From Caldimicrobium thiodismutans (GTDB lineage: Bacteria > Desulfobacterota > Thermodesulfobacteria > Thermodesulfobacteriales > Thermodesulfobacteriaceae), in contig NZ_AP014945.1 in assembly GCF_001548275.1 (NCBI RefSeq), forward strand, positions 960,001 through 992,000: a DNA stretch of 32,000 bases, given 5' to 3'. The position numbers were made by a program, and so were the translations under genes. Numbering within the stretch: the first letter of the stretch is position 1; the number at the start of each line of letters is the position of its first letter. Of the stretch, positions 3,492 to 23,961 are shown piece after piece. Below the pieces are notes generated by a model that made no database searches, was not told where the DNA came from, and worked only from the letters and a program-made list of their open reading frames with translations.

Positions 3492-5862
3492 GTCCTGATA
3501 ATTTAAGGCTCTGGATATAAACCTCTATTCCTTTAGCAATACCCTCTGCGATCTTATCTAAGTATTCTTCCTGAGTGAGTCTTTTTGCGCTTGTTGGATT
3601 GGTAATAAAATCTGCTTCAACCAGAATAGCAGGCATACGGGTTCCGACAAGCACAAGAAAAGGGGCATACTTTACCCCACGATCCTCAATATCTGGGTAA
3701 TGGCGAGAAAGCTCTCTTACCAATTCCTTTTGCACCTTTTCTGCAAGCTTACGGGATTCATTAAGTTTGGTATTAGCAATAACTGCCTTGACCAAATCCT
3801 GAAGATCTGCAAGACCTTTATCATTAGCCCTGTTTTCAAGAGCTGCAACTCTCATTGCCTCAGGATCTGTAGTAAAATTCAAATAATAGGTCTCTATCCC
3901 TTTGCCTTGAGGATCCGGGGAGGCATTAAGATGGATAGAGACAAAGAGATCTGCTTTTTGGGAATTAGCAAGCGCTGGCCTCTTAGTAAGGGGAATAAAA
4001 ACATCACTGGTGCGAGTATAGATTACTTCAACCCCTAAGCGCTCAAGAAGTTTTCCCCCCACTAATTTGACCAACTTTAAAGTTATATCCTTCTCTTTAA
4101 GTCCATTTGGACCAAGAGCACCGGGATCTTCCCCTCCATGACCGGCATCAAGCATAATTCTCTTTACCCCAAGCCCAAGTTGTCGTGCAAGGTTAATATA
4201 CTTTGTTCCATTCTCAGCCAAAGGCTCTTGTTTTTCTCTAACTGCGCCTTTTTCTACAGGTTTTTTGGTCTTAGCTAATTTCTGGGGCTTAGGTTCTACT
4301 TTTTTCTTCTCCTTTCCTACAAGATCAATAATAAGTTGATAAGGTTCCTGGAGTTTAAAAAATTTATAATCCGTAAGACTCCTCAAATCAAGGACTATTC
4401 TAACAGTCTGCCGGTCAAATTGGCCAACTCTTATTCTCTGAAGATGCTTATCCTGAAGATCAATGGCTCTTTCAATCTTCTCACCAAGAACTGCCGGGAA
4501 AAGATCCACATAAAGGCGTGGAGGGGTATCTTCTGTCCTCGGAATAAGATTAGCCTGATACTCAAAATTTCCATTAAGATCAACAATAATGCGAGTATAA
4601 TCCTCCCCGGTTACAGGCTCAATGTGTAAAACCTTTTTTAGATCAGCTATAAGGGAAGGCTGAGAGCTCTTTTCCTTTAAGGTTGGACCCTTAGAGACCT
4701 TAGGTAGCTCCTTTTTGGCAGGTTCTAAAAGGGCTACCCCCTCTTTTCCCTTCTTTATAGATTTTACCTGGGGAAATCTATCCCCCCATTCCCTTTGAAG
4801 ACTTTCCAGGCGAGCCTTGTCTTTTAATTCTTCTTTATAAAGATTGTAAAGCTGAGTATAGGCCTTTTCAGCTAAGGAATGTTGAGAATAATTTTTCAAA
4901 AAAAGTTCATAGCGCTTTCCTGCCTCAATAGCATCCTTTTTATTTAAAGAATTTTTGTAAATCTCCAGAAAAAGGTCTCCACTCCGAAAGAGAGCCAAAG
5001 GAGCTATTTCACTTCCTGGATAGAGAAGATAGATTCTTCTATATTCTGAGATCAGCTTAAGATAGTCCCTTCTATCAAAGGGCTTCTTTTTAAGAGCCTC
5101 TGCTTGGGTCTCCAGTCTTTCAAAGAGCTCTTTCAGGGTATCGGGTTCTTTTTTTAATACCTCCCCAGCCCTTTCCTCCCCTTTTTTTTCTTCAGAGACT
5201 TTGATTATCAATCTCTGTCCGGGCTTTAAAGTTGTCCCCTTAAGCTTATTGACTGCGATTATTTCCTCCTCTGTTACTCCAAAAAGCTTAGCTATTTGAG
5301 AAAGAGTTTCCCCCTCTTTAACTCTATAGATAATCTCTTTTGGCCTTGATGAAGTTGCCTTTTTAGAGGATTCTTCCTTACCTGAATCCACAGCCCTTTC
5401 CTTTTTAATTATAAGCCTTTTTCCTAATATACCCTTATCACTTTTAAGCTTGTTCCAGTCTTTCAGTTCTTCAGGGGTTACTCCATATTTTTGGGCTATA
5501 CTCTGCAAGGTCTCTCCCCTTTTAACCCTGTGATAAATTACCCTATAGGAGGTATTCTCTCCTTTCTTGGCTTGGGACTGCCCTTCTAACCCTGGCTCTT
5601 GCGTTTCCCTTTTGGCTTTACCCCTGGAAGAGGCCTCTTCTTTTTTGATAGCAAGTTTCTGCCCCACAAAGACCTTAGACTTTTTAAGATTGTTCCATTC
5701 CTTGAGATTTTCTATAGTAACTCCATATTTTTTAGCTATGCTTTGTAAGGTCTCGCCTTTTTTTACCTGATGATATATAACTTTTTCTGCTAAGGAAGAG
5801 CTTATCCAGAGAAAAATTACAAATAAGGCAACAACGCAGTGTTTAAAAAGAGAGGAGCTCAA
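3463..5862 (-). CDS. N-acetylmuramoyl-L-alanine amidase (Amidase_3, AmiC-like) with signal peptide, 3 LysM domains, TPR-like region and AMIN domain
   Basis: 799-aa ORF. Three LysM repeats (Y(H/R)VKxGETLxxIAxxYGVTxEExxxWNxL). AMIN-like segment (YTRIIVDL...RIRVGQFDRQTVRIVLDL). Catalytic domain MLDAGHGGEDPGA...VSIHLNAS...GIETYY. TTG start overlaps the mutS stop (TTGA). Confidence 0.85.
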   Translation of the reverse strand: MSSSLFKHCVVALFVIFLWISSSLAEKVIYHQVKKGETLQSIAKKYGVTIENLKEWNNLKKSKVFVGQKLAIKKEEASSRGKAKRETQEPGLEGQSQAKKGENTSYRVIYHRVKRGETLQSIAQKYGVTPEELKDWNKLKSDKGILGKRLIIKKERAVDSGKEESSKKATSSRPKEIIYRVKEGETLSQIAKLFGVTEEEIIAVNKLKGTTLKPGQRLIIKVSEEKKGEERAGEVLKKEPDTLKELFERLETQAEALKKKPFDRRDYLKLISEYRRIYLLYPGSEIAPLALFRSGDLFLEIYKNSLNKKDAIEAGKRYELFLKNYSQHSLAEKAYTQLYNLYKEELKDKARLESLQREWGDRFPQVKSIKKGKEGVALLEPAKKELPKVSKGPTLKEKSSQPSLIADLKKVLHIEPVTGEDYTRIIVDLNGNFEYQANLIPRTEDTPPRLYVDLFPAVLGEKIERAIDLQDKHLQRIRVGQFDRQTVRIVLDLRSLTDYKFFKLQEPYQLIIDLVGKEKKKVEPKPQKLAKTKKPVEKGAVREKQEPLAENGTKYINLARQLGLGVKRIMLDAGHGGEDPGALGPNGLKEKDITLKLVKLVGGKLLERLGVEVIYTRTSDVFIPLTKRPALANSQKADLFVSIHLNASPDPQGKGIETYYLNFTTDPEAMRVAALENRANDKGLADLQDLVKAVIANTKLNESRKLAEKVQKELVRELSRHYPDIEDRGVKYAPFLVLVGTRMPAILVEADFITNPTSAKRLTQEEYLDKIAEGIAKGIEVYIQSLKLSGLESLERKNF

Positions 5863-8414
5863 AAACCATCTAATTCTTTTTTTAATTGATAAAGAAATTC
5901 TAAGGCCTCCTTTGGGCTGAGCTTGTCGGGATCAATGCTTTTAATTTTATCAAAAAGTCCTGATTTTGCATCCCCTGAAAAGAGGGAAAGTTGTTTTTGT
6001 TTAAACCTTGGTCTTTTCCCTTCAGCCTCTTTCAGGATCTCTTTAGCCCTCTGCAAGACCATTTCCGGAAGACCGGCCAATCTTGCAACCTCAATTCCAT
6101 AGGATTGATCAGCTGACCCCGGTAAAATGCGGTATAAAAAAATTACCTGATCCTGCCATTCCCTCACCTCAGCATGAAAGTTTTTGATCCCTGGATAGAC
6201 CTTGGCAAGCTCGGTTAATTCAAAATAATGGGTAGCAAGGAGAGTAAAAACCCTTTTCTTATAAAGATACTCTGTTATGGCCCAGGCAAGGGACATTCCA
6301 TCAAAGGTGCTTGTTCCTCGCCCCACTTCATCTAACAAGACTAATGATCTATCTGTAGCATTATTAAGAATTTGAGCACACTCGCTCATCTCAACCATAA
6401 AGGTGCTTTTCCCCCGAATGAGCTCATCCCCTGCCCCAATTCTTGTAAAGATCTTATCAAAAAGGCCAACTCTTGCCCTTTTAGCTGGAACAAAACTACC
6501 CATCTGTGCAAGAAGCACAATCTGGGCAGTTTGCCTTAAAAAGGTAGATTTTCCACCCATATTCGGCCCTGTGATTATTAGAACCTCCGTATCTCCCTCT
6601 TTTAATTCAAGGGAGTTAGGAATAAAATTTTCCTCTCCCTGTAATCTCTCTAAAACCGGGTGTCTCCCTTCCTCAATATCTAAAACCCTCTCCTCGGTAA
6701 TCTCAGGACAGATGTATTTATACTTTTCAGCAACTTCTGCCAGGGCTATTAACACATCAAGGAGGGCTAAGGCCTTGGCTGAGGTCTTAATCTCTTCAGC
6801 CTTCTTGGCCATTTTTTCTCTAAGCTCAAGAAAAAATTCATACTCTAAGTTTTTCAACCTCTCTTCAGCTGAAAGGATTTTTTCCTCTAAGGCCTTTAGT
6901 TCCGGGACCATAAATCTTTCGGCATTGACAAGAGTCTGTTTTCTCTCAAAATAAGAGGGCACACTTCGTAGATAACCCTTGGAGACCTCTACATAATAAC
7001 CAAAAACCCTGTTATATCCGATCTTAAGGGTTGGAATCCCTGTTTTAGCCTTAAGTTCTGCCTCAAGCTGAGAGAGAAAAAGAAGACTGTTTTCTCGCAG
7101 ATTTTTAAGCTCATCAATCTCTGCTCTATACCCTTTCTTAAAAATTCCTCCCTCTTTCAAGGCTAAGGGGGGATTTTCCACCAGACTCCCTTCAAGTTCA
7201 CCAAGGATATCCTCTATATCTGAAAGGTCTTCGTAAATCTCCCTTAAAATTTCTGGACAATCAATAAAATTTAGGGCATGCTTTAGCCCATTTTTAAGCT
7301 CAGGGAGCACCTTCAGGCCATCTCTTAAGAAAGCAAGTTCCCGTGGATTTATAACCCTGAGGCTTAGCCTGCTTCCCAGCCTTTCAAGATCAGCTAAAGA
7401 TTTAAGGCCCTGGACAAGATTTTCCCTTAGCCCCCTATTTTCAAGGAAAAACTCAATTCCCCTCTGTCTTTTTTTAATGATAGTAATTTCTCTTAAAGGA
7501 TAAAGTATCCACTCCTTTAAGAGACGAGCTCCCATAGGGGTTTTAGTTCTATCAAGGACCCAGTAGAGGCTATATTTTTCAGTGCCATCCCAGAGGTTTT
7601 TTAAAAGCTCAAGATTTCTCTTGGTATTTTCATCTAAATAGAGGAATTCTTCTGGAAAATAAAAAAGTGGGGGGCCAAGCCTTTCTGCTAAGGAGGGTTG
7701 ATAAAGCTTAAGATAATAGAGAATCCCTGAGAGAGCTGCTTTAACCTCTTCAGATTCAGAGATCCCCTCATAGGCCTTCTGATAAATTCTAAAGGCCTCT
7801 TTTTCAAGAAAAGTAAGATGAACCTGAGGCAAACTTTGGTTAACCCTTTTAACAAGATCGGTCTCTTTTAAGGCTGTATCAAGAAGTATCTCCCTGGGCT
7901 CTCTTTTGAGAATCTCCGTTAAGAGCTTTTCAATAGGAAGCTCAGTATAGAGAAACTCTTCACAGGAGAGTTCAAGAAAGGCAAGGCCTGCCTTTTTCGT
8001 CCCAAGGCCTAAGGAAGCAAGATAGGTCTTTTCTTTTTCCTTAAGAAACTGAAAATCAACAAAAAGACCTGGAGTGTAAACCCTAACAACCTCTCTTTTC
8101 ACTAAACCTTTGGCTAAGGCTGGATCTTCCACCTGTTCACAGATAGCTACTTTAAAGCCAAGCTCTAAGAGTCTTTGAATGTAGGTCTCACTCTTATCTG
8201 CCGGAATCCCACACATTGGAGCAGTTAAGTCTTTACCAGCCTCTCTTTTGGTTAAAACAAGTCCAAGAATAGGGGATACTGTTTCAGCATCCTCAAAAAA
8301 CATCTCATAAAAATCCCCTAAGCGAAAGAAGAGAATGCAATCAGGGTGTTTGCCCTTTATTTCAAAATATTGACGAAACATAGGGGTAATCTCGGTTTTA
8401 GGAAGTCCTCTCAT
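5859..8414 (-). CDS. mutS: DNA mismatch repair protein MutS
   Basis: 851-aa ORF. N-terminal TPMFRQYFEIKGKHPDCILFFRLGDFYEMFFEDA, Walker A GPNMGGKSTFLRQ, DEVGRGTSTFDG, ATHYFELT. Its start overlaps the nadD stop (ATGA). Confidence 0.95.
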   Translation of the reverse strand: MRGLPKTEITPMFRQYFEIKGKHPDCILFFRLGDFYEMFFEDAETVSPILGLVLTKREAGKDLTAPMCGIPADKSETYIQRLLELGFKVAICEQVEDPALAKGLVKREVVRVYTPGLFVDFQFLKEKEKTYLASLGLGTKKAGLAFLELSCEEFLYTELPIEKLLTEILKREPREILLDTALKETDLVKRVNQSLPQVHLTFLEKEAFRIYQKAYEGISESEEVKAALSGILYYLKLYQPSLAERLGPPLFYFPEEFLYLDENTKRNLELLKNLWDGTEKYSLYWVLDRTKTPMGARLLKEWILYPLREITIIKKRQRGIEFFLENRGLRENLVQGLKSLADLERLGSRLSLRVINPRELAFLRDGLKVLPELKNGLKHALNFIDCPEILREIYEDLSDIEDILGELEGSLVENPPLALKEGGIFKKGYRAEIDELKNLRENSLLFLSQLEAELKAKTGIPTLKIGYNRVFGYYVEVSKGYLRSVPSYFERKQTLVNAERFMVPELKALEEKILSAEERLKNLEYEFFLELREKMAKKAEEIKTSAKALALLDVLIALAEVAEKYKYICPEITEERVLDIEEGRHPVLERLQGEENFIPNSLELKEGDTEVLIITGPNMGGKSTFLRQTAQIVLLAQMGSFVPAKRARVGLFDKIFTRIGAGDELIRGKSTFMVEMSECAQILNNATDRSLVLLDEVGRGTSTFDGMSLAWAITEYLYKKRVFTLLATHYFELTELAKVYPGIKNFHAEVREWQDQVIFLYRILPGSADQSYGIEVARLAGLPEMVLQRAKEILKEAEGKRPRFKQKQLSLFSGDAKSGLFDKIKSIDPDKLSPKEALEFLYQLKKELDGF

Positions 8415-13146: not shown

Positions 13147-13971
13147 ATGAGTTCTCTTTTTCTTGAACTTGCCTTTTTAATATACCTTATTGCCTGGATT
13201 GGCTTTTTATTTTATTTCAAGACCTTAGATAAAAAGGCTCTGAAATTATCACAAGGGGTTTTGCTTACTGGTTTTTCCTTTCATCTCCTTTCCCTGTTAA
13301 TTTTGGTTAAAGACTTCTATATCTCCCCTTTTTTTACATTTCGTGAGGTCTTAAGCCTCTTTTCCTTTACCCTAATAGGAGTGTATTTTTATTTTTCCTT
13401 TGGCCGGGACAAGGCCTATACTCTGGGAACCTTTCTTTTGCCCTTGCCTATTTTATTTTTAGCTCTTTCTTTTTTCCTCAAAAAGGCACCTGCTACCCCC
13501 TTTTTACCGTATGTTAAAAGCCTCTGGTTTCCCCTGCATGGAATATCTTCTCTGCTCTCGCATGCCTTTTTACTCAACGGATTTATTGCCTCTCTTATGT
13601 ATCTTTTACAGGAAAAGGAGCTTAAAAGGAAACACTTTGGATACTTTTTTAAAAAGCTTCCTCCTTTACATTCCTTAGAAAGAATCTCAGAGAAAGCTCT
13701 TTATCACGGCTTTTTTTTCCTCACTCTCGGAATCCTGAGTGGAGCTTTATGGAGTGAACTTGCCCTTGGAGATTACTGGAGGTGGTCAGCCAAAGAGGTT
13801 ATCTCCCTATCTTTATGGCTCATCTATGCAGGAATGATCCATCAGAGGATTCTTATTGGCTGGAGAGGTAAAAGGCTTGCCTATATGTTTATCCTTGGGA
13901 GCCTCCTCTGGTTTTTTACCTTTTTCGTTGTAAATTTTTACTTTAAAGGCTTTCATACTTATGGTTACTAA
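13147..13971 (+). CDS. Cytochrome c assembly protein family (CcsA/HemX-like) membrane protein
   Basis: 274-aa polytopic membrane ORF directly upstream of and overlapping hemA. Trp-rich WWD-like motif GDYWRWSAKEVISLSLWLIY. Confidence 0.7.
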   Translation: MSSLFLELAFLIYLIAWIGFLFYFKTLDKKALKLSQGVLLTGFSFHLLSLLILVKDFYISPFFTFREVLSLFSFTLIGVYFYFSFGRDKAYTLGTFLLPLPILFLALSFFLKKAPATPFLPYVKSLWFPLHGISSLLSHAFLLNGFIASLMYLLQEKELKRKHFGYFFKKLPPLHSLERISEKALYHGFFFLTLGILSGALWSELALGDYWRWSAKEVISLSLWLIYAGMIHQRILIGWRGKRLAYMFILGSLLWFFTFFVVNFYFKGFHTYGY

Positions 13972-15334
13972 TTTCAAGCTCTGTCTTATTGGAGTTAATC
14001 ATAAAACTACTCCTGTGGAGATTAGAGAAAAGCTCTCCTTTACCTCAGCTCACATTCATCCCTTAGAGAAATTTCAGAAATTTTCAACCTCCTTTAAAGA
14101 GGCCTTTTTTCTCTCTACCTGCAACAGGGTTGAATTTTTCTTTGTTCATCATCCTGACCAGAGGCCCTTACTTTTAGAGGCCTTTTCAAATTTTTTAAAA
14201 GAGGAAACAGGCTTCACCCTGGAAAATCTTGAGCCCCATTTTTATTTTCTTGAGGATGAAAACGCTATTAGACATCTCTTTGAAGTAGCCTGCGGTCTTG
14301 ACTCCTTAGTCCTGGGGGAACCTCAGATCCTTGGTCAGCTCAAGGAAGCCTATAGGGTTGCTCTCCATTATAAAACCTCAGGCCTTATCCTGAATAAACT
14401 TATGCATCGGGCCTTTTTTGTAGCCAAGAGAGTTAGAACTGAAACTGGTATAGGGGGAGGGGCTGTTTCAGTTAGTTATGCAGCCTCTCAGCTTGCTAAA
14501 AAAGTGCTTGGTTCTCTACGGGATAAGAAAGTGCTTTTAATTGGAGCAGGGGAGATGGCTGAACTTGCCTGCCAGCACTTATTAACCTTAGGTGCTACAG
14601 AGATACTTATTGCTAATAGAACCCTTTCTAAGGCCATAGAACTTGCAGAACGCTTTAAAGGAAAAGCCTCCTCCTTAGAAGAACTCCCCGAGGTTCTCCT
14701 TCAAGCAGATATTGTAATTTCTTCCACAGGTGCCCCTGGTTTTATCATCACCAAAAAACTTCTTTCCCCTCTTTTAAAACCGCGCAAATTTAAACCTCTT
14801 TTTATTATTGATATAGCAGTGCCAAGGGATGTAGAGCCTGCAGTAAATGAACTTGAAAATGTCTATCTCTTTGATATTGATGATCTCAAAGAAGTGGTAG
14901 AGGAAAACCTGAAGGCCCGCAAAAATGAAGCCCTTAGAGCTAAAACTATAATTGAGGAAGAGGTGCATAAGGTCAAAAAATGGCTCTCGGAGCTTGCCAT
15001 AAATCCAACTTTGAGAAGGCTTACTGAAAAGGCAGAAACCTTACGCCAGAAGGAACTGGAAAAAACTCTAAAAAAGTTACGGAATATTTCCCCAGAAGAT
15101 AAGGAGGCCTTAGAGATCCTTACCAAATCCCTCGTGCAGAAACTCCTCTCCTATCCCATTCATTTTCTTAAAAGGGGGTATCACGAAGAGGGTAAGTTTG
15201 CCATAAGTCTCATCCGGGAGATCTATCAATTAGATGAGGGAGAAGAGAGCGCTAAAAAAGAACTTTTTCTTGAAGATACCTTAGAGGAAGCTTCCCTCCA
15301 GAAAGAGGATTCCTCTGTAAAAATACTTCAGTAA
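13961..15334 (+). CDS. hemA: Glutamyl-tRNA reductase HemA
   Basis: 457-aa ORF. N-terminal LIGVNHKTTPVEIREKL, active-site STCNRVEFF, NAD-binding VLLIGAGEMAEL, ANRT. Confidence 0.93.
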   Translation: MVTNFKLCLIGVNHKTTPVEIREKLSFTSAHIHPLEKFQKFSTSFKEAFFLSTCNRVEFFFVHHPDQRPLLLEAFSNFLKEETGFTLENLEPHFYFLEDENAIRHLFEVACGLDSLVLGEPQILGQLKEAYRVALHYKTSGLILNKLMHRAFFVAKRVRTETGIGGGAVSVSYAASQLAKKVLGSLRDKKVLLIGAGEMAELACQHLLTLGATEILIANRTLSKAIELAERFKGKASSLEELPEVLLQADIVISSTGAPGFIITKKLLSPLLKPRKFKPLFIIDIAVPRDVEPAVNELENVYLFDIDDLKEVVEENLKARKNEALRAKTIIEEEVHKVKKWLSELAINPTLRRLTEKAETLRQKELEKTLKKLRNISPEDKEALEILTKSLVQKLLSYPIHFLKRGYHEEGKFAISLIREIYQLDEGEESAKKELFLEDTLEEASLQKEDSSVKILQ

Positions 15335-15953: not shown

Positions 15954-17504
15954 TTAATTTAATTTTTCCCAGAAAAAGCCCTTGATATTCCTCTCCCCTG
16001 AAGAAATCTCAATCCCTATAAGATAAATCTCCTTACACTTCCCCTCATACTTCTTATGATACCCCTTCTCCTTAAGTTGAACTAAAGCTTTAGCATCTGC
16101 CTCCTCTCCATCAACCACCTTGAACTCAAAAAGATAAACTCTTTCCCTATATAGCACTGTCAAATCTATCTGCCCCTTATTGGTTATATCCTCAGGGATT
16201 ACCTCAAGCCCTGACCCACATAAAAAGGCATAAAAACAACTGGCATAATACCCCTCATAACGAAAAAGCTCATTCCTCCTGAACCAATCATGGGGTATCC
16301 CTGCATAAAGACTCTCAAGAGCCTTTTTCATCTTCTCAAAATTATTCTCCTCAAGAGCCAAAAGAAAATCCCTTGTCTTTAAAGAAACTTCCCCTGTATC
16401 CCCTGTAAAATACTCCGCAAGCACCTCATTTAAGGCTAACTTTACCTCCTTATTCGGATAGGAAAGCTCATAAAGAATCTTATCTGCAAGCCTGAACATT
16501 CTCTTTATAGTTAAATAACCCGCTTGAAAAAGAAGATTCTCAGGCCTAACTCTATCTACATCAAATGACCCAATAAGTGAGTCTGTTGCTACAAGATTTT
16601 CAAGCTCGGGAAGATAAAAACGCTTCTCAAGAAGAAGCTTTATAAGAAAACTGGGAGTCCCTGTTTCAAACCAGTAAGGGTGAAAGGTTTTTTTCTTAAG
16701 ATAGAGAAGCACATCAAAGGGATTGTAAACGGGTTCCCCAAGCCAGGAATAACCATTATACCAGCATTTTATAAGCTCTAAATCCTTATCTTCTAATTCT
16801 TCTCTAAAGACCTCTTCAAGCTCTTCTTGAGTATATCCACAGATTTCTGCAAATCTTTTATCAAGGCTAATGTCATTTAACTGATTTAGGCCTGAGAAAA
16901 GGGAAACCTTTGAGAATTTGGAAACCCCCGTTAGGAAAACAAATTTTAAATAAGCATCAAGGGGTTTAAGAACACTATAAAAATTCTTAAGCACATCTCT
17001 TACTGCCTTTGCGGTCTCTCTATCCTCAATACAATCAAGAATGGGTTTGTCATACTCATCCACAAGAACTACAACTTTTTGCTTATACTTCTCATAACTT
17101 TTAAGGATTAATTCCTCAAAACAGCTTCTGTAATCATCAAGATATTCACATTCTATTTGAAGAGTCCTCTGGCATCTCTTAAGCTGGATAAGAATCCATT
17201 TTTTTAATTCTTCGGCACTGCTTACATCTCCTCCCCCAAAATCAATATGTATAACAGGATACCTGACACTCCAGTCCCAGTTTTTCTCAAGATAGAGCCC
17301 CTGGAAAAGCTCTTTTCTTCCAAGGAAGGCCTGTTTCAGGGTGTCCACGAAAAGGGATTTTCCAAATCTCCTTGGGCGGGAGAGAAAATAATATTTTCCT
17401 TCGGAGACAAGTTTTTCAACAAATTGAGTTTTATCTACATAATAATAGGGTTCTGAGCGAATCTCCACAAAGCTTGAAATTCCAATGGGAAGATTTTTCT
17501 TCAT
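15954..17504 (-). CDS. AAA-ATPase-like domain protein with C-terminal PD-(D/E)XK nuclease domain (PF09820/PDDEXK_9-type architecture)
   Basis: 516-aa ORF. N-terminus LPIGISSFVEIRSEPYYYVDKT, P-loop-like SRPRRFGKSL, Walker-B-like VVLVDEYDKP. C-terminal nuclease-like core GQIDLTVLYRERVYLFEFKV (D...ExK). No convincing SD. Confidence 0.75.
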   Translation of the reverse strand: MKKNLPIGISSFVEIRSEPYYYVDKTQFVEKLVSEGKYYFLSRPRRFGKSLFVDTLKQAFLGRKELFQGLYLEKNWDWSVRYPVIHIDFGGGDVSSAEELKKWILIQLKRCQRTLQIECEYLDDYRSCFEELILKSYEKYKQKVVVLVDEYDKPILDCIEDRETAKAVRDVLKNFYSVLKPLDAYLKFVFLTGVSKFSKVSLFSGLNQLNDISLDKRFAEICGYTQEELEEVFREELEDKDLELIKCWYNGYSWLGEPVYNPFDVLLYLKKKTFHPYWFETGTPSFLIKLLLEKRFYLPELENLVATDSLIGSFDVDRVRPENLLFQAGYLTIKRMFRLADKILYELSYPNKEVKLALNEVLAEYFTGDTGEVSLKTRDFLLALEENNFEKMKKALESLYAGIPHDWFRRNELFRYEGYYASCFYAFLCGSGLEVIPEDITNKGQIDLTVLYRERVYLFEFKVVDGEEADAKALVQLKEKGYHKKYEGKCKEIYLIGIEISSGERNIKGFFWEKLN

Positions 17505-19738: not shown

Positions 19739-19782
19739 GCCACCCTCTCCCTTAGAAAAATCTTTTAGGTTATACTAATAAA

Positions 19783-21048
19783 GTGCAGGTAAAAATCCTT
19801 CTCCTTTTTTTGGTTGGTATTCTATCAGCCTTTTTCTATACTTTAATCATAGCACCTTCCTCTCAAAAGGGGATTCCCAGAGGGGAAATACCTCATTTAA
19901 CCTCTGGAAGGCCTGAGCTATGTTTAATATGCCATAAGGAAAAAATTCAAGAAAAGGCCCATGCCGTTGAGGTATTGGGGTGCTCAAGCTGTCACCTTGG
20001 AAGCCCCTTAACCCCCTCGTTAAAAGAAGCCCATACAGGGCTAATTAAAAATCCTTCAGACCTTAGAGTCGTGCATAAGACCTGCGGACAAGCCAATTGT
20101 CACCCAGAAGATGTAAAAAAGGTGAAAAACTCTCTTATGGCTACCAATCACGGGATACTTGTGCGCTTAATAAAGGTCTTTGAAGAAGAAAACCTCCTAA
20201 AAACTCATCCTGTCTTAAAGGTAGCAGACCTTTATACTGAACCCAAAGAGTTTTCTCAAAGCCTTGCCCTTGACTACTTTAGAAAACTCTGTGGATCCTG
20301 TCACCTCTATTTACAGAAAGAAAAAATGGAGGGCTTTTTAGCTGAAAAAGGAGGAGGTTGTTCAGCCTGCCATTTAACAGGCTCAAAGGAAGATTTGAAA
20401 AAGAAAAAGCTCCATCCCGGGCTGATCAAAAAAATTCATCTCAACAGGTGTGTGAACTGTCACAATCGCAGTGGAAGAATTGGTCTTACCTACCAGGGCC
20501 TATATGAAACCCCTCAAGGAGGTGTCTTTGATAAAAAATGGATTGATGGTAGAGAACTTATAGAGATAGAGCCAGATATCCATTATAAAGCAGGGCTTCA
20601 CTGCATAGACTGTCACACCCGAGATGAGACTATGGGAGATGGAAACTTCTATAAAAATATTAGCGAGGCTATTGAGGTTACCTGTGAAACCTGTCACTTA
20701 GCAGAAATAAAAACTAAAAAGGGAAAGATACTGCAACAGCTTGTAAATACTGAAAAAGGGCTCTTTCAAAAAAGAAAGATGGATGAATTGCTTCTTCCTG
20801 TAAAAAAGCCCGCTTCCATTTGTCAGGATAAGCTCCATACAAGGCTTTCCTGCTCAGCCTGCCATTCTAAATATATGCCCCAGTGCATGGGCTGTCATGT
20901 TAGATACAATCCTAAGGAAACCCACTTTGATAAAATTAAAGCCAGAGAAACTCGAGGCCTCTGGGAAGAACACGAATCCTACAGAACCCTTGAAGACCCA
21001 CCTCTTGCTGTAAAGGGGAATAAAATTGTTCCTGTAACTCCTGGGTGA
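19783..21048 (+). CDS. Multihaem cytochrome c (10 haem-binding motifs), N-terminal TM/signal anchor; ends at an in-frame TGA that may be recoded
   Basis: 421-aa ORF. Motifs CLICH, CSSCH, CGQANCH (Cx4CH), CGSCH, CSACH, CVNCH, CIDCH, CETCH, CSACH, CMGCH. Hydrophobic N-terminus ILLLFLVGILSAFFYTLIIAP. GTG start without a clear SD. Confidence 0.85.
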   Translation: MQVKILLLFLVGILSAFFYTLIIAPSSQKGIPRGEIPHLTSGRPELCLICHKEKIQEKAHAVEVLGCSSCHLGSPLTPSLKEAHTGLIKNPSDLRVVHKTCGQANCHPEDVKKVKNSLMATNHGILVRLIKVFEEENLLKTHPVLKVADLYTEPKEFSQSLALDYFRKLCGSCHLYLQKEKMEGFLAEKGGGCSACHLTGSKEDLKKKKLHPGLIKKIHLNRCVNCHNRSGRIGLTYQGLYETPQGGVFDKKWIDGRELIEIEPDIHYKAGLHCIDCHTRDETMGDGNFYKNISEAIEVTCETCHLAEIKTKKGKILQQLVNTEKGLFQKRKMDELLLPVKKPASICQDKLHTRLSCSACHSKYMPQCMGCHVRYNPKETHFDKIKARETRGLWEEHESYRTLEDPPLAVKGNKIVPVTPG

Positions 21049-21084
21049 CAGGATTTCATTACCCTTCTGGATAAGAAAGGGAAA

Positions 21085-21471
21085 GTGGAAAAATATTTTG
21101 AAAGTATTACCTGGGCTCAGATTGATCCTCATTCCACTCAAAAAAAGGGAAGAACCTGCCAGAGCTGTCATCAAAATCCCAAAGCCGTAGGCCTTGGATA
21201 TGGAAAAATTTCTTTTCAAAAAGGGAAACTTTTCTTTGAGGCCCTTGAGAAGTCAGTAACCAAAAATCCAAAGATTTCTCTATCCCAGATTGTTACCCCT
21301 GAGGGTAAGACCTTAGTAAAATTTAACCGCCCGGAAATGAGGGGCTTTAATGAAGAGGAGCTTTTAAGGATATTGCGAGTAGGACTCTGTCTCAATTGTC
21401 ATTCTGAAAAAGATAAGCTCTTTAAGACCTGGAAGAGAGATACCAGGTGCCCTAAATTTCCTCATCTTTAA
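21085..21471 (+). CDS. Dihaem cytochrome c segment, probably the C-terminal continuation of 19783-21048 through TGA 21046-21048
   Basis: 128-aa ORF with CQSCH and CLNCH. Same frame as the upstream ORF, with no stop in 21049-21084. No signal peptide of its own and no convincing SD before its GTG. Confidence 0.6.
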   Translation: MEKYFESITWAQIDPHSTQKKGRTCQSCHQNPKAVGLGYGKISFQKGKLFFEALEKSVTKNPKISLSQIVTPEGKTLVKFNRPEMRGFNEEELLRILRVGLCLNCHSEKDKLFKTWKRDTRCPKFPHL

Positions 21472-21490: not shown

Positions 21491-21518
21491 TTGACAAAAT
21501 TTCAAGTTTGAGTAAAGT
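21491..21518 (+). promoter_or_regulatory. Putative sigma70-type promoter for cydAB
   Basis: -35 TTGACA (21491-21496), 16-nt spacer, -10 TAAAGT (21513-21518), about 60 nt upstream of cydA, which has an AAGGAGGTG SD. Confidence 0.4.
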
Positions 21519-21581: not shown

Positions 21582-22922
21582 ATGGATGTCTTATTAGCTT
21601 CAAGGTTACAGTTTGCTGCAGCAGCTATGTTTCATTTTCTTTTTGTGCCCCTGACACTGGGGCTCTCCTTTTTAACAGCCATTTTTCAGACCCTCTGGCT
21701 TAAGACTGGAGATGATGATTACAAGAGGGCAGCGCGCTTCTGGGGTAAGCTTTTTCTCATTAACTTTGGTCTGGGAGTAGTTACAGGTATTACCCTTGAG
21801 TTTCAGTTTGGCACAAACTGGCGTTTTTACTCTCAGTATGTTGGAGACATCTTTGGCTCCCTTCTTGCTATTGAAGCAACCCTTGCCTTTTTCCTTGAAT
21901 CAACTTTTATTGCAGTCTGGTGGTTTGGTTGGGGTAAAGTGAGCCCAAGGGTTAACACTCTTGCTATCTGGCTTACAGCTATTGCCTCAAATATCTCTGC
22001 TCTTTGGATACTTCTTGCCAATGGTTGGATGCAACATCCAGTAGGCTATGTTATAAGAGGGGGTAGAGCAGAACTTGAAAGTTTCTCAGCAGTTTTAACC
22101 AATTCTTTTGCCTGGTGGGAATTTCTACATACGGTGCCTTCAGCCTATGTGCTTTCAGGGTTTTTTGTTCTTGGTGTTTCAGCCTGGCACCTAATTAGAA
22201 AAAATGAGCTTTCCCTATTTAAGAAGAGTTTCAGGGTGGCTGCCATCTGGACTATGATTTTCAGCCTCTATCTTATTGTTGAAGGGCATATTCATGGTGC
22301 AGAAGTGGCAGAAAAACAGCCTACCAAACTTGCTGCTATGGAGTCTCATTGGGTAACTGAGAAAGGGGCAGGATGGAGTCTCTTGGTTATTCCTGATGAA
22401 GAAAATGAAAGAAACTCAGTAGAACTTTTTAAAATCCCCAATGTTCTTAGTCTTCTTGCCTTCCACGATCCTAATGCTGAAGTAAAAGGACTTAAAGAAT
22501 GGCCTAAGGAGGAGAGACCTCCGGTTGCCCTTTCTTTCTGGAGTTTCCGCATCATGGTTGCCCTTGGATTCCTCTTTGGACTTCTCTCTATTCTTGCCTT
22601 TTTAAAGAGAAGGCAACCTGAGGCAAGTCCAAAACTTCTTAAAGTTCTTATCTGGAATATACCTCTTCCCTATATTGCAGCTCAAGCAGGATGGATGCTT
22701 GCAGAGGTAGGAAGACAGCCCTGGATTGTTTATGGCCTTATGAAAACCAAGGATGCAGTTTCACCCCTTTCAGCAGTGCAAGTTGGTCTTAGCCTTCCTG
22801 CTTTTATTATTGTTTATGGAATCCTCGGAATTATTTGTTTCTGGTTGATTGCTCATCATGCCAGAAAAGGGCCAGAGCCAGTTGAAGCCCTTTCAGAAAA
22901 ACCTGCTACAGAAACCCTATAA
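21582..22922 (+). CDS. cydA: Cytochrome bd-type quinol oxidase subunit I
   Basis: 446-aa ORF. LSRLQFA-type N-terminus (ASRLQFAAAAMFHFLFVPLTLG), GTNW, WMQHPVG, and a C-terminal GRQPWIVYGLMKT motif. Confidence 0.92.
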   Translation: MDVLLASRLQFAAAAMFHFLFVPLTLGLSFLTAIFQTLWLKTGDDDYKRAARFWGKLFLINFGLGVVTGITLEFQFGTNWRFYSQYVGDIFGSLLAIEATLAFFLESTFIAVWWFGWGKVSPRVNTLAIWLTAIASNISALWILLANGWMQHPVGYVIRGGRAELESFSAVLTNSFAWWEFLHTVPSAYVLSGFFVLGVSAWHLIRKNELSLFKKSFRVAAIWTMIFSLYLIVEGHIHGAEVAEKQPTKLAAMESHWVTEKGAGWSLLVIPDEENERNSVELFKIPNVLSLLAFHDPNAEVKGLKEWPKEERPPVALSFWSFRIMVALGFLFGLLSILAFLKRRQPEASPKLLKVLIWNIPLPYIAAQAGWMLAEVGRQPWIVYGLMKTKDAVSPLSAVQVGLSLPAFIIVYGILGIICFWLIAHHARKGPEPVEALSEKPATETL

Positions 22923-22935
22923 AGGAGGTGAGACC

Positions 22936-23961
22936 ATGGAAATGAATATTTTTCAAATAATCTGGTATGTTTTATGGGGAGTTCTCTGGGCCGTTTATTT
23001 TGCCCTTGATGGCTTTGACCTCGGGGCAGGTTCTCTTCTATACTTTCTTGGAAAAGACGAAAAGGAAAGAAGGGTAGTCTATCAGGCAGTTGGTCCTTTC
23101 TGGGATGGAAATGAGGTATGGCTTATAACTGCAGGAGGTGCAACCTTTGCCGCCTTTCCCACAGCTTATGCAGTTATGTTCAGTGCCCTCTATACCCCCC
23201 TTTTACTCCTTCTATTTTCTCTAATTCTTAGAGGCGTAGCAGTAGAATATAGAAACAAACATGAAAGCCTTTCCTGGAGAAACTTCTGGGATTTTCTCTT
23301 TTTCCTTGGAAGTTTTCTGCCTGCCCTTCTTCTTGGAGTTGCCTTTGCCAACATTTTTAAGGGTGTTCCCATTGATGAAAAAGGCCTTCTGCAAACCAAT
23401 TTATTTGGGCTTTTGAATCCCTATGGACTTTTGGGTGGACTTCTCTTTGTATTTTGCTTTGCAACCCATGGAGCTCTCTGGGTAGCCTTTAAAGCTCCTT
23501 CACCTTTTAGTGAAAGGGCTGCCAATCTTGCCAAAAAAACCTGGGTTGTAACCCTTCTTTTGGTAATTCTCTTTTGGATTATATCTTTTGCTGTAACTAA
23601 TATGTGGGCTAACTTTTTAAAAGCCCCACTTCTCATTGCCTTTCCCCTTTTAGCTGCCCTCTGTTATCTCATGGTCCCTGTATTTCTGAATAAAGGGGCC
23701 TACTTTAAAGCCTGGGCCTTTTCAGCTCTTACCATAGTGCTTTTTACCGCCTGGGGAGTTGCAGGCCTTTTCCCCAACATCCTTCCCTCTTCCATTAATC
23801 CAGCCTATAGTCTTACCCTTGTTAATAGCTCCTCAAGTCCTCTTACTCTAAAGATAATGACAACTGTTGCTATTCTCTTTGTTCCCATTGTTCTTGCTTA
23901 TACTTTCTGGGCTTACAAGACCTTCTCCTACAAAATAACCAAGGAAGATATCTCCTACTAA
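22936..23961 (+). CDS. cydB: Cytochrome bd-type quinol oxidase subunit II
   Basis: The ORF track starts at 22849 inside cydA. ATG 22936 is preceded by AAAGGAGGTG and gives a typical N-terminus MEMNIFQIIWYVLWGVLWAVYFALDGFDLGAG...WDGNEVWL. Confidence 0.9.
   Translation: MEMNIFQIIWYVLWGVLWAVYFALDGFDLGAGSLLYFLGKDEKERRVVYQAVGPFWDGNEVWLITAGGATFAAFPTAYAVMFSALYTPLLLLLFSLILRGVAVEYRNKHESLSWRNFWDFLFFLGSFLPALLLGVAFANIFKGVPIDEKGLLQTNLFGLLNPYGLLGGLLFVFCFATHGALWVAFKAPSPFSERAANLAKKTWVVTLLLVILFWIISFAVTNMWANFLKAPLLIAFPLLAALCYLMVPVFLNKGAYFKAWAFSALTIVLFTAWGVAGLFPNILPSSINPAYSLTLVNSSSSPLTLKIMTTVAILFVPIVLAYTFWAYKTFSYKITKEDISY

Follow-up and report, generated by a model that had tools for sequence, protein, structure and literature searches.

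The window analysed here, a 32-kb (32,000-nucleotide) stretch of the Caldimicrobium thiodismutans genome, contains on its forward strand two listed open reading frames (ORFs), 19783–21048 and 21085–21471, which both encode multihaem cytochrome c sequence and lie in a common frame interrupted solely by a TGA codon (21046–21048). The frame begins at GTG 19783 and ends at TAA 21469–21471, with no other in-frame stop; the sequence and its translation thus bear out a preliminary description of the window, in which the two ORFs were placed in one frame with 36 nt free of stops between them (QDFITLLDKKGK). Readthrough of the UGA would give a product of 562 residues with 12 haem sites. Nine CXXCH motifs and one CX4CH motif (CGQANCH) precede the TGA, and two further CXXCH motifs follow it (CQSCH, 21157–21171, and CLNCH, 21388–21402), so that the fused protein has 11 CXXCH motifs and one CX4CH motif; the arrangement of ten plus two haem sites described earlier holds when the CX4CH motif is counted among the ten. 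The piece C-terminal to the TGA has, as also described, no export signal or signal peptide. The comparisons presented below indicate that UGA 21046–21048 is decoded, almost certainly as selenocysteine (Sec), and that 19783–21471 is very probably a single Sec-decoded gene related to that of the 12-haem cytochrome ExtM.

The fused sequence, searched against 5.8 billion proteins, yielded 721 relatives, which fall into two length classes: one of ∼420 residues ending in “...VTPG”, and one of ∼560–590 residues reading “...VTPGCQD...”. Two alignments, with 18 and 75 full-length homologues, show Pro420, Gly421, Cys422, Gln423, and Asp424 to be invariant and place the TGA of the window gene on Cys422. 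When codon 422 was surveyed in the DNA of 80 genome loci, in one of which the contig stops short of the site, it was TGA in 26 and TGC or TGT in 53, making the window gene the 27th of the TGA (Sec) type; each orthologue has a single ORF in which precisely this codon is TGC/TGT or TGA, the pattern that the preliminary description had proposed to look for. The TGA-type genes occur in Caldimicrobium, Thermodesulfobacterium, Thermosulfurimonas, Thermodesulfatator, and metagenome-assembled genomes (MAGs) of Thermodesulfobacteriales or Thermodesulfobacteriota, all of them Thermodesulfobacteria where named (hosts include Thermodesulfobacterium thermophilum DSM 1276, T. hveragerdense DSM 12571, Thermodesulfobacterium sp. 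TA1, and Thermosulfurimonas dismutans S95), and the TGC/TGT (Cys) type is found mostly in Desulfobulbales (Desulfocapsa, Desulfopila, Desulfurivibrio, and a cable bacterium) and in two Caldimicrobium MAGs. Near-identical Caldimicrobium sisters differ at this codon, which is TGC in locus L005 (position 2399) and TGA in L006 (position 2323); Caldimicrobium locus L002 (position 2515) likewise has TGC. A separate, more divergent metagenomic lineage (P0125/L081, also L082) has a TGA at the homologous site (2145–2147 of L081) in the motif VPG-U-LDF, with an insertion of ∼50 residues ahead of the site, an open downstream frame, two CXXCH motifs, and a local hairpin.

The sequence beyond the UGA has the character of coding DNA. 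In all 27 TGA-type genes the frame 3′ of the TGA is open for 121–146 codons and encodes both CXXCH motifs. Pairwise identities among these genes at codon positions 1, 2, and 3 are 0.59, 0.72, and 0.38 downstream of the TGA, and 0.62, 0.72, and 0.39 in the 140 codons upstream; because the values are equal on the two sides, the same purifying selection acts on the protein either side of the UGA. The first in-frame start codon (ATG, GTG, or TTG) lies anywhere from 3 to 112 codons past the TGA, varying among the orthologues, and there is therefore no conserved second initiation site. The residues encoded between the TGA and GTG 21085, i.e. by the 36 nt that separate the two listed ORFs, are conserved as protein.

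A stem-loop follows the UGA directly (Table 1). In the minimum free energy (MFE) structure its upper stem is formed by CCCUUCU (21062–21068) pairing with AG-AAGGG (21074–21081, with A21076 bulged) around the loop GGAUA (21069–21073), and its lower stem by UUUCAUU (21054–21060) pairing with AGUGGAA (21084–21090), which places the loop 20 nt from the UGA. The hairpin proposed in the preliminary description is hence present, although two further apical pairs form, the apical stem having seven pairs and a 5-nt loop, not the 10-nt loop given there. A hairpin scan that allowed no bulges chose another hairpin in the window, for which the MFE structure was used instead. Taken alone, the window hairpin is modestly unusual (z of −2.2 against dinucleotide shuffles); its significance derives from conservation across the orthologues rather than from the fold of the window sequence alone.

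Hairpins are present in nearly all TGA-type orthologues, with UGA-to-loop distances of 20–26 nt, stems mostly of 6–13 bp, and, in 22 of 26, a G within the first two loop positions. Bacterial Sec insertion sequence (SECIS) elements, as reportedly defined by Zhang and Gladyshev in 2005, place the apical loop ∼16–37 nt from the UGA, with 3–14 nt in the loop and a G at one of its first two positions, and the geometry predicted for the window and its orthologues fits this consensus. The letters of the stem vary by clade with pairing kept (ACCCUUCUU/GAGAAGGGU, UCCUCUC/GAGGGGA, and CUUUCCC/GGGAAAG), a further example being GCUUUCCA/UGGGAAGC versus GCUUUCCG/CGGAAAGC. Because the register of the hairpin differs by clade (i+j = 52/53, 57, or 61), alignment columns do not correspond, and hairpin-anchored tabulation together with two folding controls was used instead of codon-anchored covariation. 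Sec-type and Cys-type genes encode very similar peptides at the hairpin site. Against shuffles, the folding z was −2.03 for the Sec type and −0.11 for the Cys type (Mann-Whitney p = 1.7e-9); against synonymous recodings drawn from each gene’s own codon usage, it was −1.85 and −0.26, respectively (p = 2e-8). The hairpin, whose covariation was a check proposed in the preliminary description, is accordingly specific to TGA-type genes, with stem sequences that shift between lineages without loss of pairing. Two Cys-type Caldimicrobium genes (L005 and L002) retain a SECIS-like hairpin, which suggests a very recent Sec-to-Cys conversion. A 5-bp mini-hairpin (UCCUG/CAGGA, 21039–21053) that holds the UGA itself in its loop was flagged as terminator-like in a scan; we rejected it as a feature, since it is complete in five of the 27 Sec-type genes and is largely dictated by the P-G-U-Q-D codons.

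Table 1. Features of the Sec-type cytochrome gene in the window
Feature	Coordinates	Strand	Basis
Probable complete gene, ExtM-like 12-haem cytochrome c selenoprotein, 562 codons, UGA as codon 422	19783..21471	+	Single frame; Cys homologues of 556–590 residues align end to end; NF040943, E 2e-85
N-terminal hydrophobic helix, residues ∼1–23 (VQVKILLLFLVGILSAFFYTLII), putative export signal or membrane anchor	19783..19851	+	Sequence; helix 3–23 in the AlphaFold2 (AF2) model of P0002
Cys347 (TGT), lone Cys, candidate haem ligand or partner of Sec422	20821..20823	+	Invariant in subfamily alignments
UGA codon 422, almost certainly read as Sec, motif P-G-U-Q-D	21046..21048	+	Aligned to invariant Cys; TGA in 26 further genomes, TGC/TGT in 53; true ExtM has PVTPGCQTF
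SECIS-like stem-loop	21054..21090	+	MFE folds; equivalents in nearly all TGA-type orthologues
C-terminal 140 codons after Sec, predicted rest of beta-rich domain, haem sites 11 and 12	21049..21468	+	Open, with two CXXCH, in 27/27 TGA-type genes

UGA is the ordinary terminator of three of the 23 long ORFs in the window, and a scan of the window ORFs showed none of the other genes to be a credible readthrough candidate, observations from which we take the standard genetic code to apply. A reassigned code was rejected, as UGA and TAA stop other genes normally. The published context is that of Sec users: few bacteria are richer in selenoproteins than the Thermodesulfobacteriota (PMC13188914), and a Sec-type MccSep with a SECIS element is listed for Thermosulfurimonas dismutans (PMC13510729), which is for this reason inferred to decode Sec. 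T. dismutans also carries the TGA-type form of the window gene (L024). The T. dismutans genome paper makes no mention of selenocysteine, the literature on Caldimicrobium together with selenocysteine gave nothing useful, and an ISME J 2026 paper on sulfur disproportionation makes no mention of cytochromes. The identity of the inserted residue as Sec is thus deduced from the Sec/Cys pair, the SECIS-like element, and this published context.

Several observations weigh against decoding as Sec. No selA, selB, selD, or tRNA-Sec gene was found in the 32-kb window or the fetched flanks, and ARAGORN detected no tRNA-Sec in the window or in 29 loci. A scan of the window at Rfam gathering thresholds matched no family. 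The window hairpin is AU-rich and bulged, with p ∼0.10 against synonymous recodings, in line with the earlier remark that its stem is AU-rich and weak, and the hairpin of one orthologue (L013) is weak. The lack of sel genes and tRNA-Sec in the window and flanks would suit a UGA that is recoded but not as Sec, either by a near-cognate or suppressor tRNA (inserting Trp, Cys, or Arg) or by a hairpin-stimulated leaky stop that yields a mixture of a 421-residue 10-haem protein and the 562-residue form. Downstream hairpins can generally stimulate readthrough, and inefficient Sec insertion normally gives some truncated product; the hairpin described here could itself promote leaky readthrough. However, the codon falls on an invariant Cys and sister taxa exchange TGA for TGC, which is the signature of a Sec/Cys pair, and the position and loop features of the hairpin match the bacterial SECIS criteria given above. 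Moreover, relatives of the same class are reported to have a Sec-type MccSep with a SECIS element (PMC13510729), in a selenoprotein-rich phylum (PMC13188914). We consider non-Sec recoding improbable.

Two readings in which the UGA terminates translation fare worse. The TGA could be a nonsense mutation, as the preliminary description allowed, or a sequencing or assembly error, with the downstream ORF a decaying remnant: the NCBI and JGI gene calls do end at the TGA, giving ∼420-residue products named “hypothetical protein” (RefSeq entries for Thermodesulfobacterium included), and the window hairpin is weak alone. A remnant would, however, gather stops and frameshifts, whereas the frame with both CXXCH motifs is intact in every TGA-type gene and diverges with the same third-position bias as the upstream region. 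The recurrence of the TGA in 26 other genomes from several genera and in the separate metagenomic lineage also contradicts decay or error, which we hold to be exceedingly improbable. Alternatively, translation might stop at the UGA and a dihaem piece of 128–140 residues be initiated on its own, at GTG 21085 or by reinitiation, the two polypeptides then associating. Such a two-gene arrangement is suggested by the GTG 12 codons past the UGA and the purine-rich stretch before it (AAAGGGAAA), and ExtKL was long annotated as two genes. It is difficult to reconcile with the unconserved position of the first start codon among orthologues, with the Cys-type homologues, all of which are contiguous single chains, and with the conservation as protein of the residues between the TGA and the GTG. 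Furthermore, the C-terminal piece has no signal peptide, yet its two CXXCH motifs need haem attachment in the periplasm, where the Ccm/Ccs systems attach c-type haem. We judge two separate genes to be very improbable. The proposal of the preliminary description that the UGA encodes Sec in one 562-residue, 12-haem protein is instead supported by the Sec/Cys pairing, the conserved downstream coding sequence, and the hairpin.

With respect to family, only generic multihaem domains are matched in Pfam by the fused protein, which in contrast matches the NCBIfam model for ExtM (NF040943) with 287 bits (E = 2e-85), below the 800-bit equivalog cutoff. Residues 353–467, including the Sec site, match the ExtN/ExtO models at ∼1e-15. 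An exhaustive search of the superfamily gave 1007 representatives, of which 70 were sampled, and all 70 match the ExtM model; those above the equivalog cutoff, P0230 (881 bits) and P0157 (826 bits), both have PVTPG-C-QTF where the window protein has PVTPG-U-QDF. On the sequence evidence, the window gene is a Sec-containing member of a distinct ExtM-like subfamily, not an ExtM equivalog. ExtM (GSU2935) is a 12-haem, 68-kDa cytochrome present in all Geobacter species, encoded directly downstream of extKL along with ExtN, the Rieske protein ExtO, and the cytochrome b ExtP (PMC5877670), and ExtM homologues outside ext clusters are known in cable bacteria (PMC11976967). The window protein and ExtM are homologous over essentially their full length, with 12 haem sites in ∼560–630 residues and the shared local motif PVTPG-C/U-Q-x-F, and many Sec-type loci share with ExtM an association with Rieske and ExtP-like cytochrome b genes. 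They differ in their low identity (∼30–35%), which together with the score relative to the cutoff sets the window protein in a separate subfamily, in having Sec for Cys and an invariant Cys347 where ExtM has His, and in genomic setting: the window gene is not part of an ext cluster, has a radical-SAM gene, cydAB, and housekeeping genes as neighbours, and lacks a nearby gene for ExtI porin, ExtH rhodanese, or ExtKL. The superfamily also contains ExtM-like proteins of ∼900 residues (P0134, P0142, P0146, P0148, and others), in which an extension of ∼300 residues precedes the 12-haem module; all those sampled have Met at the Sec column. In NCBI records several full-length Cys-type homologues (P0041, P0043, P0073, P0082, and P0090) are called “amino acid ABC transporter substrate-binding protein”, a name that is plainly wrong for a multihaem cytochrome.

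Contrary to the preliminary description, in which a Sec-containing multihaem cytochrome was thought to be novel, such proteins are already described. A 2026 review of selenoproteomes lists three cytochrome-type selenoprotein families, ExtKL (NF040886), GSU2204 (NF041027), and octahaem tetrathionate reductase (TIGR04315) (PMC13188914), and MccSep (ExtKL) has been studied in detail (PMC13510729). None of the three NCBIfam models is matched by the fused protein at E ≤ 10, and identity with MccSep/ExtKL, the GSU2204 family, or octahaem tetrathionate reductase was rejected on this ground; the latter two are likewise families of c-type cytochromes with Sec members (PMC13188914). Neither the window protein nor the family profile detected MccSep (PDB 9wt8 and 9wt9), which was present in the PDB set searched, and sequence and profile searches of the PDB returned only marginal matches of a generic CXXCH or NrfA-like kind. 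The ExtM-like Sec family, with its 12 haems and P-G-U-Q-D motif, does appear uncatalogued, being absent from the 2026 list and without a dedicated NCBIfam model.

MccSep is the one biochemically characterised multihaem selenoprotein: a tetrameric polysulfide reductase with five haems, essential for S0 respiration, whose fold joins a haem cap to a C-terminal Ig-like beta-sandwich and whose Sec325 is located on a D-G-U-P loop of the latter, beside a haem ligated by His and Cys239 (PMC13510729). The parallels with MccSep/ExtKL (GSU2937-2936) are extensive. Both are multihaem cytochromes c with one in-frame UGA that were annotated as two ORFs, both have a SECIS element (here predicted) just 3′ of the UGA and Sec/Cys pairs among their homologues, and both have the Sec immediately after a Gly (D-G-U-P versus P-G-U-Q), in a loop of a beta-rich domain near the C terminus (here predicted), and a second conserved lone Cys. 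The hosts of both are sulfur-metabolising Desulfobacterota, and in Geobacter the two families (ExtM and ExtKL) are encoded side by side. In contrast to MccSep, with five haems, ∼450 residues, and a cleaved signal, the window protein has 12 haems and 562 residues, a probable N-terminal anchor, and no detectable sequence or profile similarity to MccSep. Other precedents are TsdA, SoxAX, and DsrJ, periplasmic c-type cytochromes in which a Cys outside the haem motifs carries out sulfur chemistry at or near a haem. These may serve as a model for Cys347 and Sec422, as suggested by the discussion of PMC13510729, although they have no homology to the window protein beyond the CXXCH motifs (SoxA, E ∼1).

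The AF2 model of a Cys-type orthologue, P0002 (73% identical; predicted local distance difference test score 80, predicted template modelling score 0.77), has an N-terminal helix (3–23), a helical haem-binding region (∼40–360), and a beta-rich domain (∼364–490), with residue 422 in a loop between strands of the last, a predicted layout reminiscent of MccSep. The N-terminal helix has no obvious AXA cleavage site, and is therefore proposed to be a signal-anchor. In an alignment of the 70 superfamily representatives (A4), the Sec column is occupied by Met in 41, Cys in 27, Tyr in one, and Val in one. This alternation of Met, a classical haem c ligand, and Cys suggests that residue 422 lies at or next to a haem iron, possibly as an axial ligand. 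Cys347 is invariant in the subfamily, and its column is His in 34 of the 70 representatives, true ExtM included; the residue might ligate a haem or work together with Sec422, and the lone Cys347 with Sec422 recalls the Cys239/Sec325 pair of MccSep.

The genomic surroundings provide a possible link to the quinone pool. In 14 Sec-type loci from Thermosulfurimonas, Thermodesulfatator, Thermodesulfobacterium, and relatives (L024, at 4780–5986, and L014, L015, L017, L019–L023, L025, L034, L050, L061, and L062), the cytochrome gene is immediately preceded by genes for a Rieske protein and an ExtP-like cytochrome b, the only ext-type neighbours there. Rieske protein, cytochrome b, and Sec cytochrome look like a three-gene bc-type module, and the Rieske/cytochrome b pair, which echoes the ExtM-ExtO-ExtP grouping of Geobacter, suggests by analogy a coupling to quinones. 

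For the window gene we envisage that a SECIS-type stem-loop, 6–45 nt after UGA codon 422 in the mRNA, would direct SelB and Sec-tRNA(Sec) to insert Sec at codon 422 instead of termination, and that the 562-residue product would be exported by means of the hydrophobic helix at its N terminus and would receive 12 c-type haems. The Sec would replace the Cys of the conserved P-G-C-Q-D loop, predicted at a beta-hairpin tip in the C-terminal beta-rich domain, and by analogy with MccSep/ExtKL and other sulfur-cycle cytochromes would act as the reactive chalcogen in a periplasmic redox site to which the haem chain delivers electrons. In most Thermodesulfobacteria the neighbouring Rieske/cytochrome b module would carry electrons between the enzyme and the quinone pool, and Caldimicrobium would use a different route; polysulfide, or another sulfur or selenium compound, might be the substrate. 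The location of the protein, its redox partners, and its substrate are all inferred, and our proposal of a membrane-anchored, periplasm-facing, quinol-linked oxidoreductase, with Sec422 reactive on a sulfur or selenium substrate, is a tentative one that is somewhat more apt to fail than to hold. Four points weigh against this functional assignment: the function of ExtM is unassigned (PMC5877670), no solved structure is detectably similar to the protein by sequence, profile, or Foldseek, no Rieske or cytochrome b gene neighbours the cytochrome gene in the window or the other Caldimicrobium loci, and the neighbours in Desulfopila are housekeeping genes.

A true selenoprotein might alternatively serve electron transfer or structure, with residue 422 an axial ligand or redox tuner in a periplasmic conduit that has no sulfur substrate. 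The predominance of Met over Cys in the Sec column and the presence of only ∼7 conserved non-motif His residues for 12 haems are consistent with this role, and ExtM has been discussed as an electron-transfer cytochrome (PMC5877670, PMC11976967). On the other hand, Sec is costly and is catalytic in nearly all known selenoproteins (general knowledge; PMC13188914), and the invariance of Gln-Asp after the Cys/Sec in the subfamily suggests a structured active-site loop; we consider a purely electron-transferring or structural role rather unlikely, if well worth keeping in view. Because the Sec column is ∼60% Met and ∼40% Cys, and because there are not enough conserved distal His residues to give all 12 haems bis-His ligation, residue 422 may be a haem axial ligand; the Thermodesulfobacteria proteins would then contain either a haem c with natural His/Sec ligation or, as in MccSep, a Sec that faces a haem ligated by Cys (here Cys347). 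This is a speculative reading that we would expect to prove wrong in most such cases. To our knowledge, selenolate-ligated haem, or Sec set against a Cys-ligated haem, is cofactor chemistry known so far only from protein engineering; if the reading is true, natural Sec-haem chemistry would sit in a Rieske/cytochrome b-wired enzyme of sulfur-disproportionating thermophiles.

The remaining features of the locus concern its boundaries and neighbours. The GTG start at 19783 is without a clear Shine-Dalgarno sequence, and a −10-like hexamer, TATACT, lies only 7 nt upstream (19771–19785), which hints that the cytochrome mRNA may be leaderless or have a very short leader. A radical-SAM gene upstream and cydAB downstream form a synteny conserved within Caldimicrobium only. 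The cydAB genes (cytochrome bd quinol oxidase; 21582–23961, same strand) have their own promoter-like site, TTGACA-16-TAAAGT (21491–21518), and their adjacency to the cytochrome gene is common to only four Caldimicrobium loci. Between ssb and the radical-SAM gene is an ORF on the opposite strand (15954–17504) with AAA-ATPase_like and PD-(D/E)XK (PDDEXK_9) domains; it has no counterpart in the syntenic Caldimicrobium loci and is probably a lineage-specific insertion. Further upstream (13147–15334), the window has a ccsB-like gene for cytochrome c biogenesis that overlaps hemA (glutamyl-tRNA reductase) at the beginning of the latter, an overlap kept ∼5 kb upstream in four Caldimicrobium loci.

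Decoding would use the standard bacterial Sec machinery, and multihaem cytochromes with Sec are already known as a kind; the significance of the present case lies in annotation, comparison, and the biology of the hosts. Truncation at the UGA deprives the annotated proteins of two haem sites and of a probable active-site residue. A second multihaem cytochrome selenoprotein family, unrelated to MccSep, becomes available for comparison with it, and the use of Sec would point to the conserved P-G-C-Q loop as redox-active in ExtM, providing a concrete, testable residue for the ExtM family. Hosts of the TGA form exist in culture, which makes the prediction directly testable. The occurrence of the family in Caldimicrobium, Thermosulfurimonas, Thermodesulfatator, Desulfocapsa, Desulfurivibrio, and cable bacteria, together with its Rieske/cytochrome b linkage in some of them, suggests it as a candidate for an enzyme that couples quinol to sulfur disproportionation or sulfur respiration.

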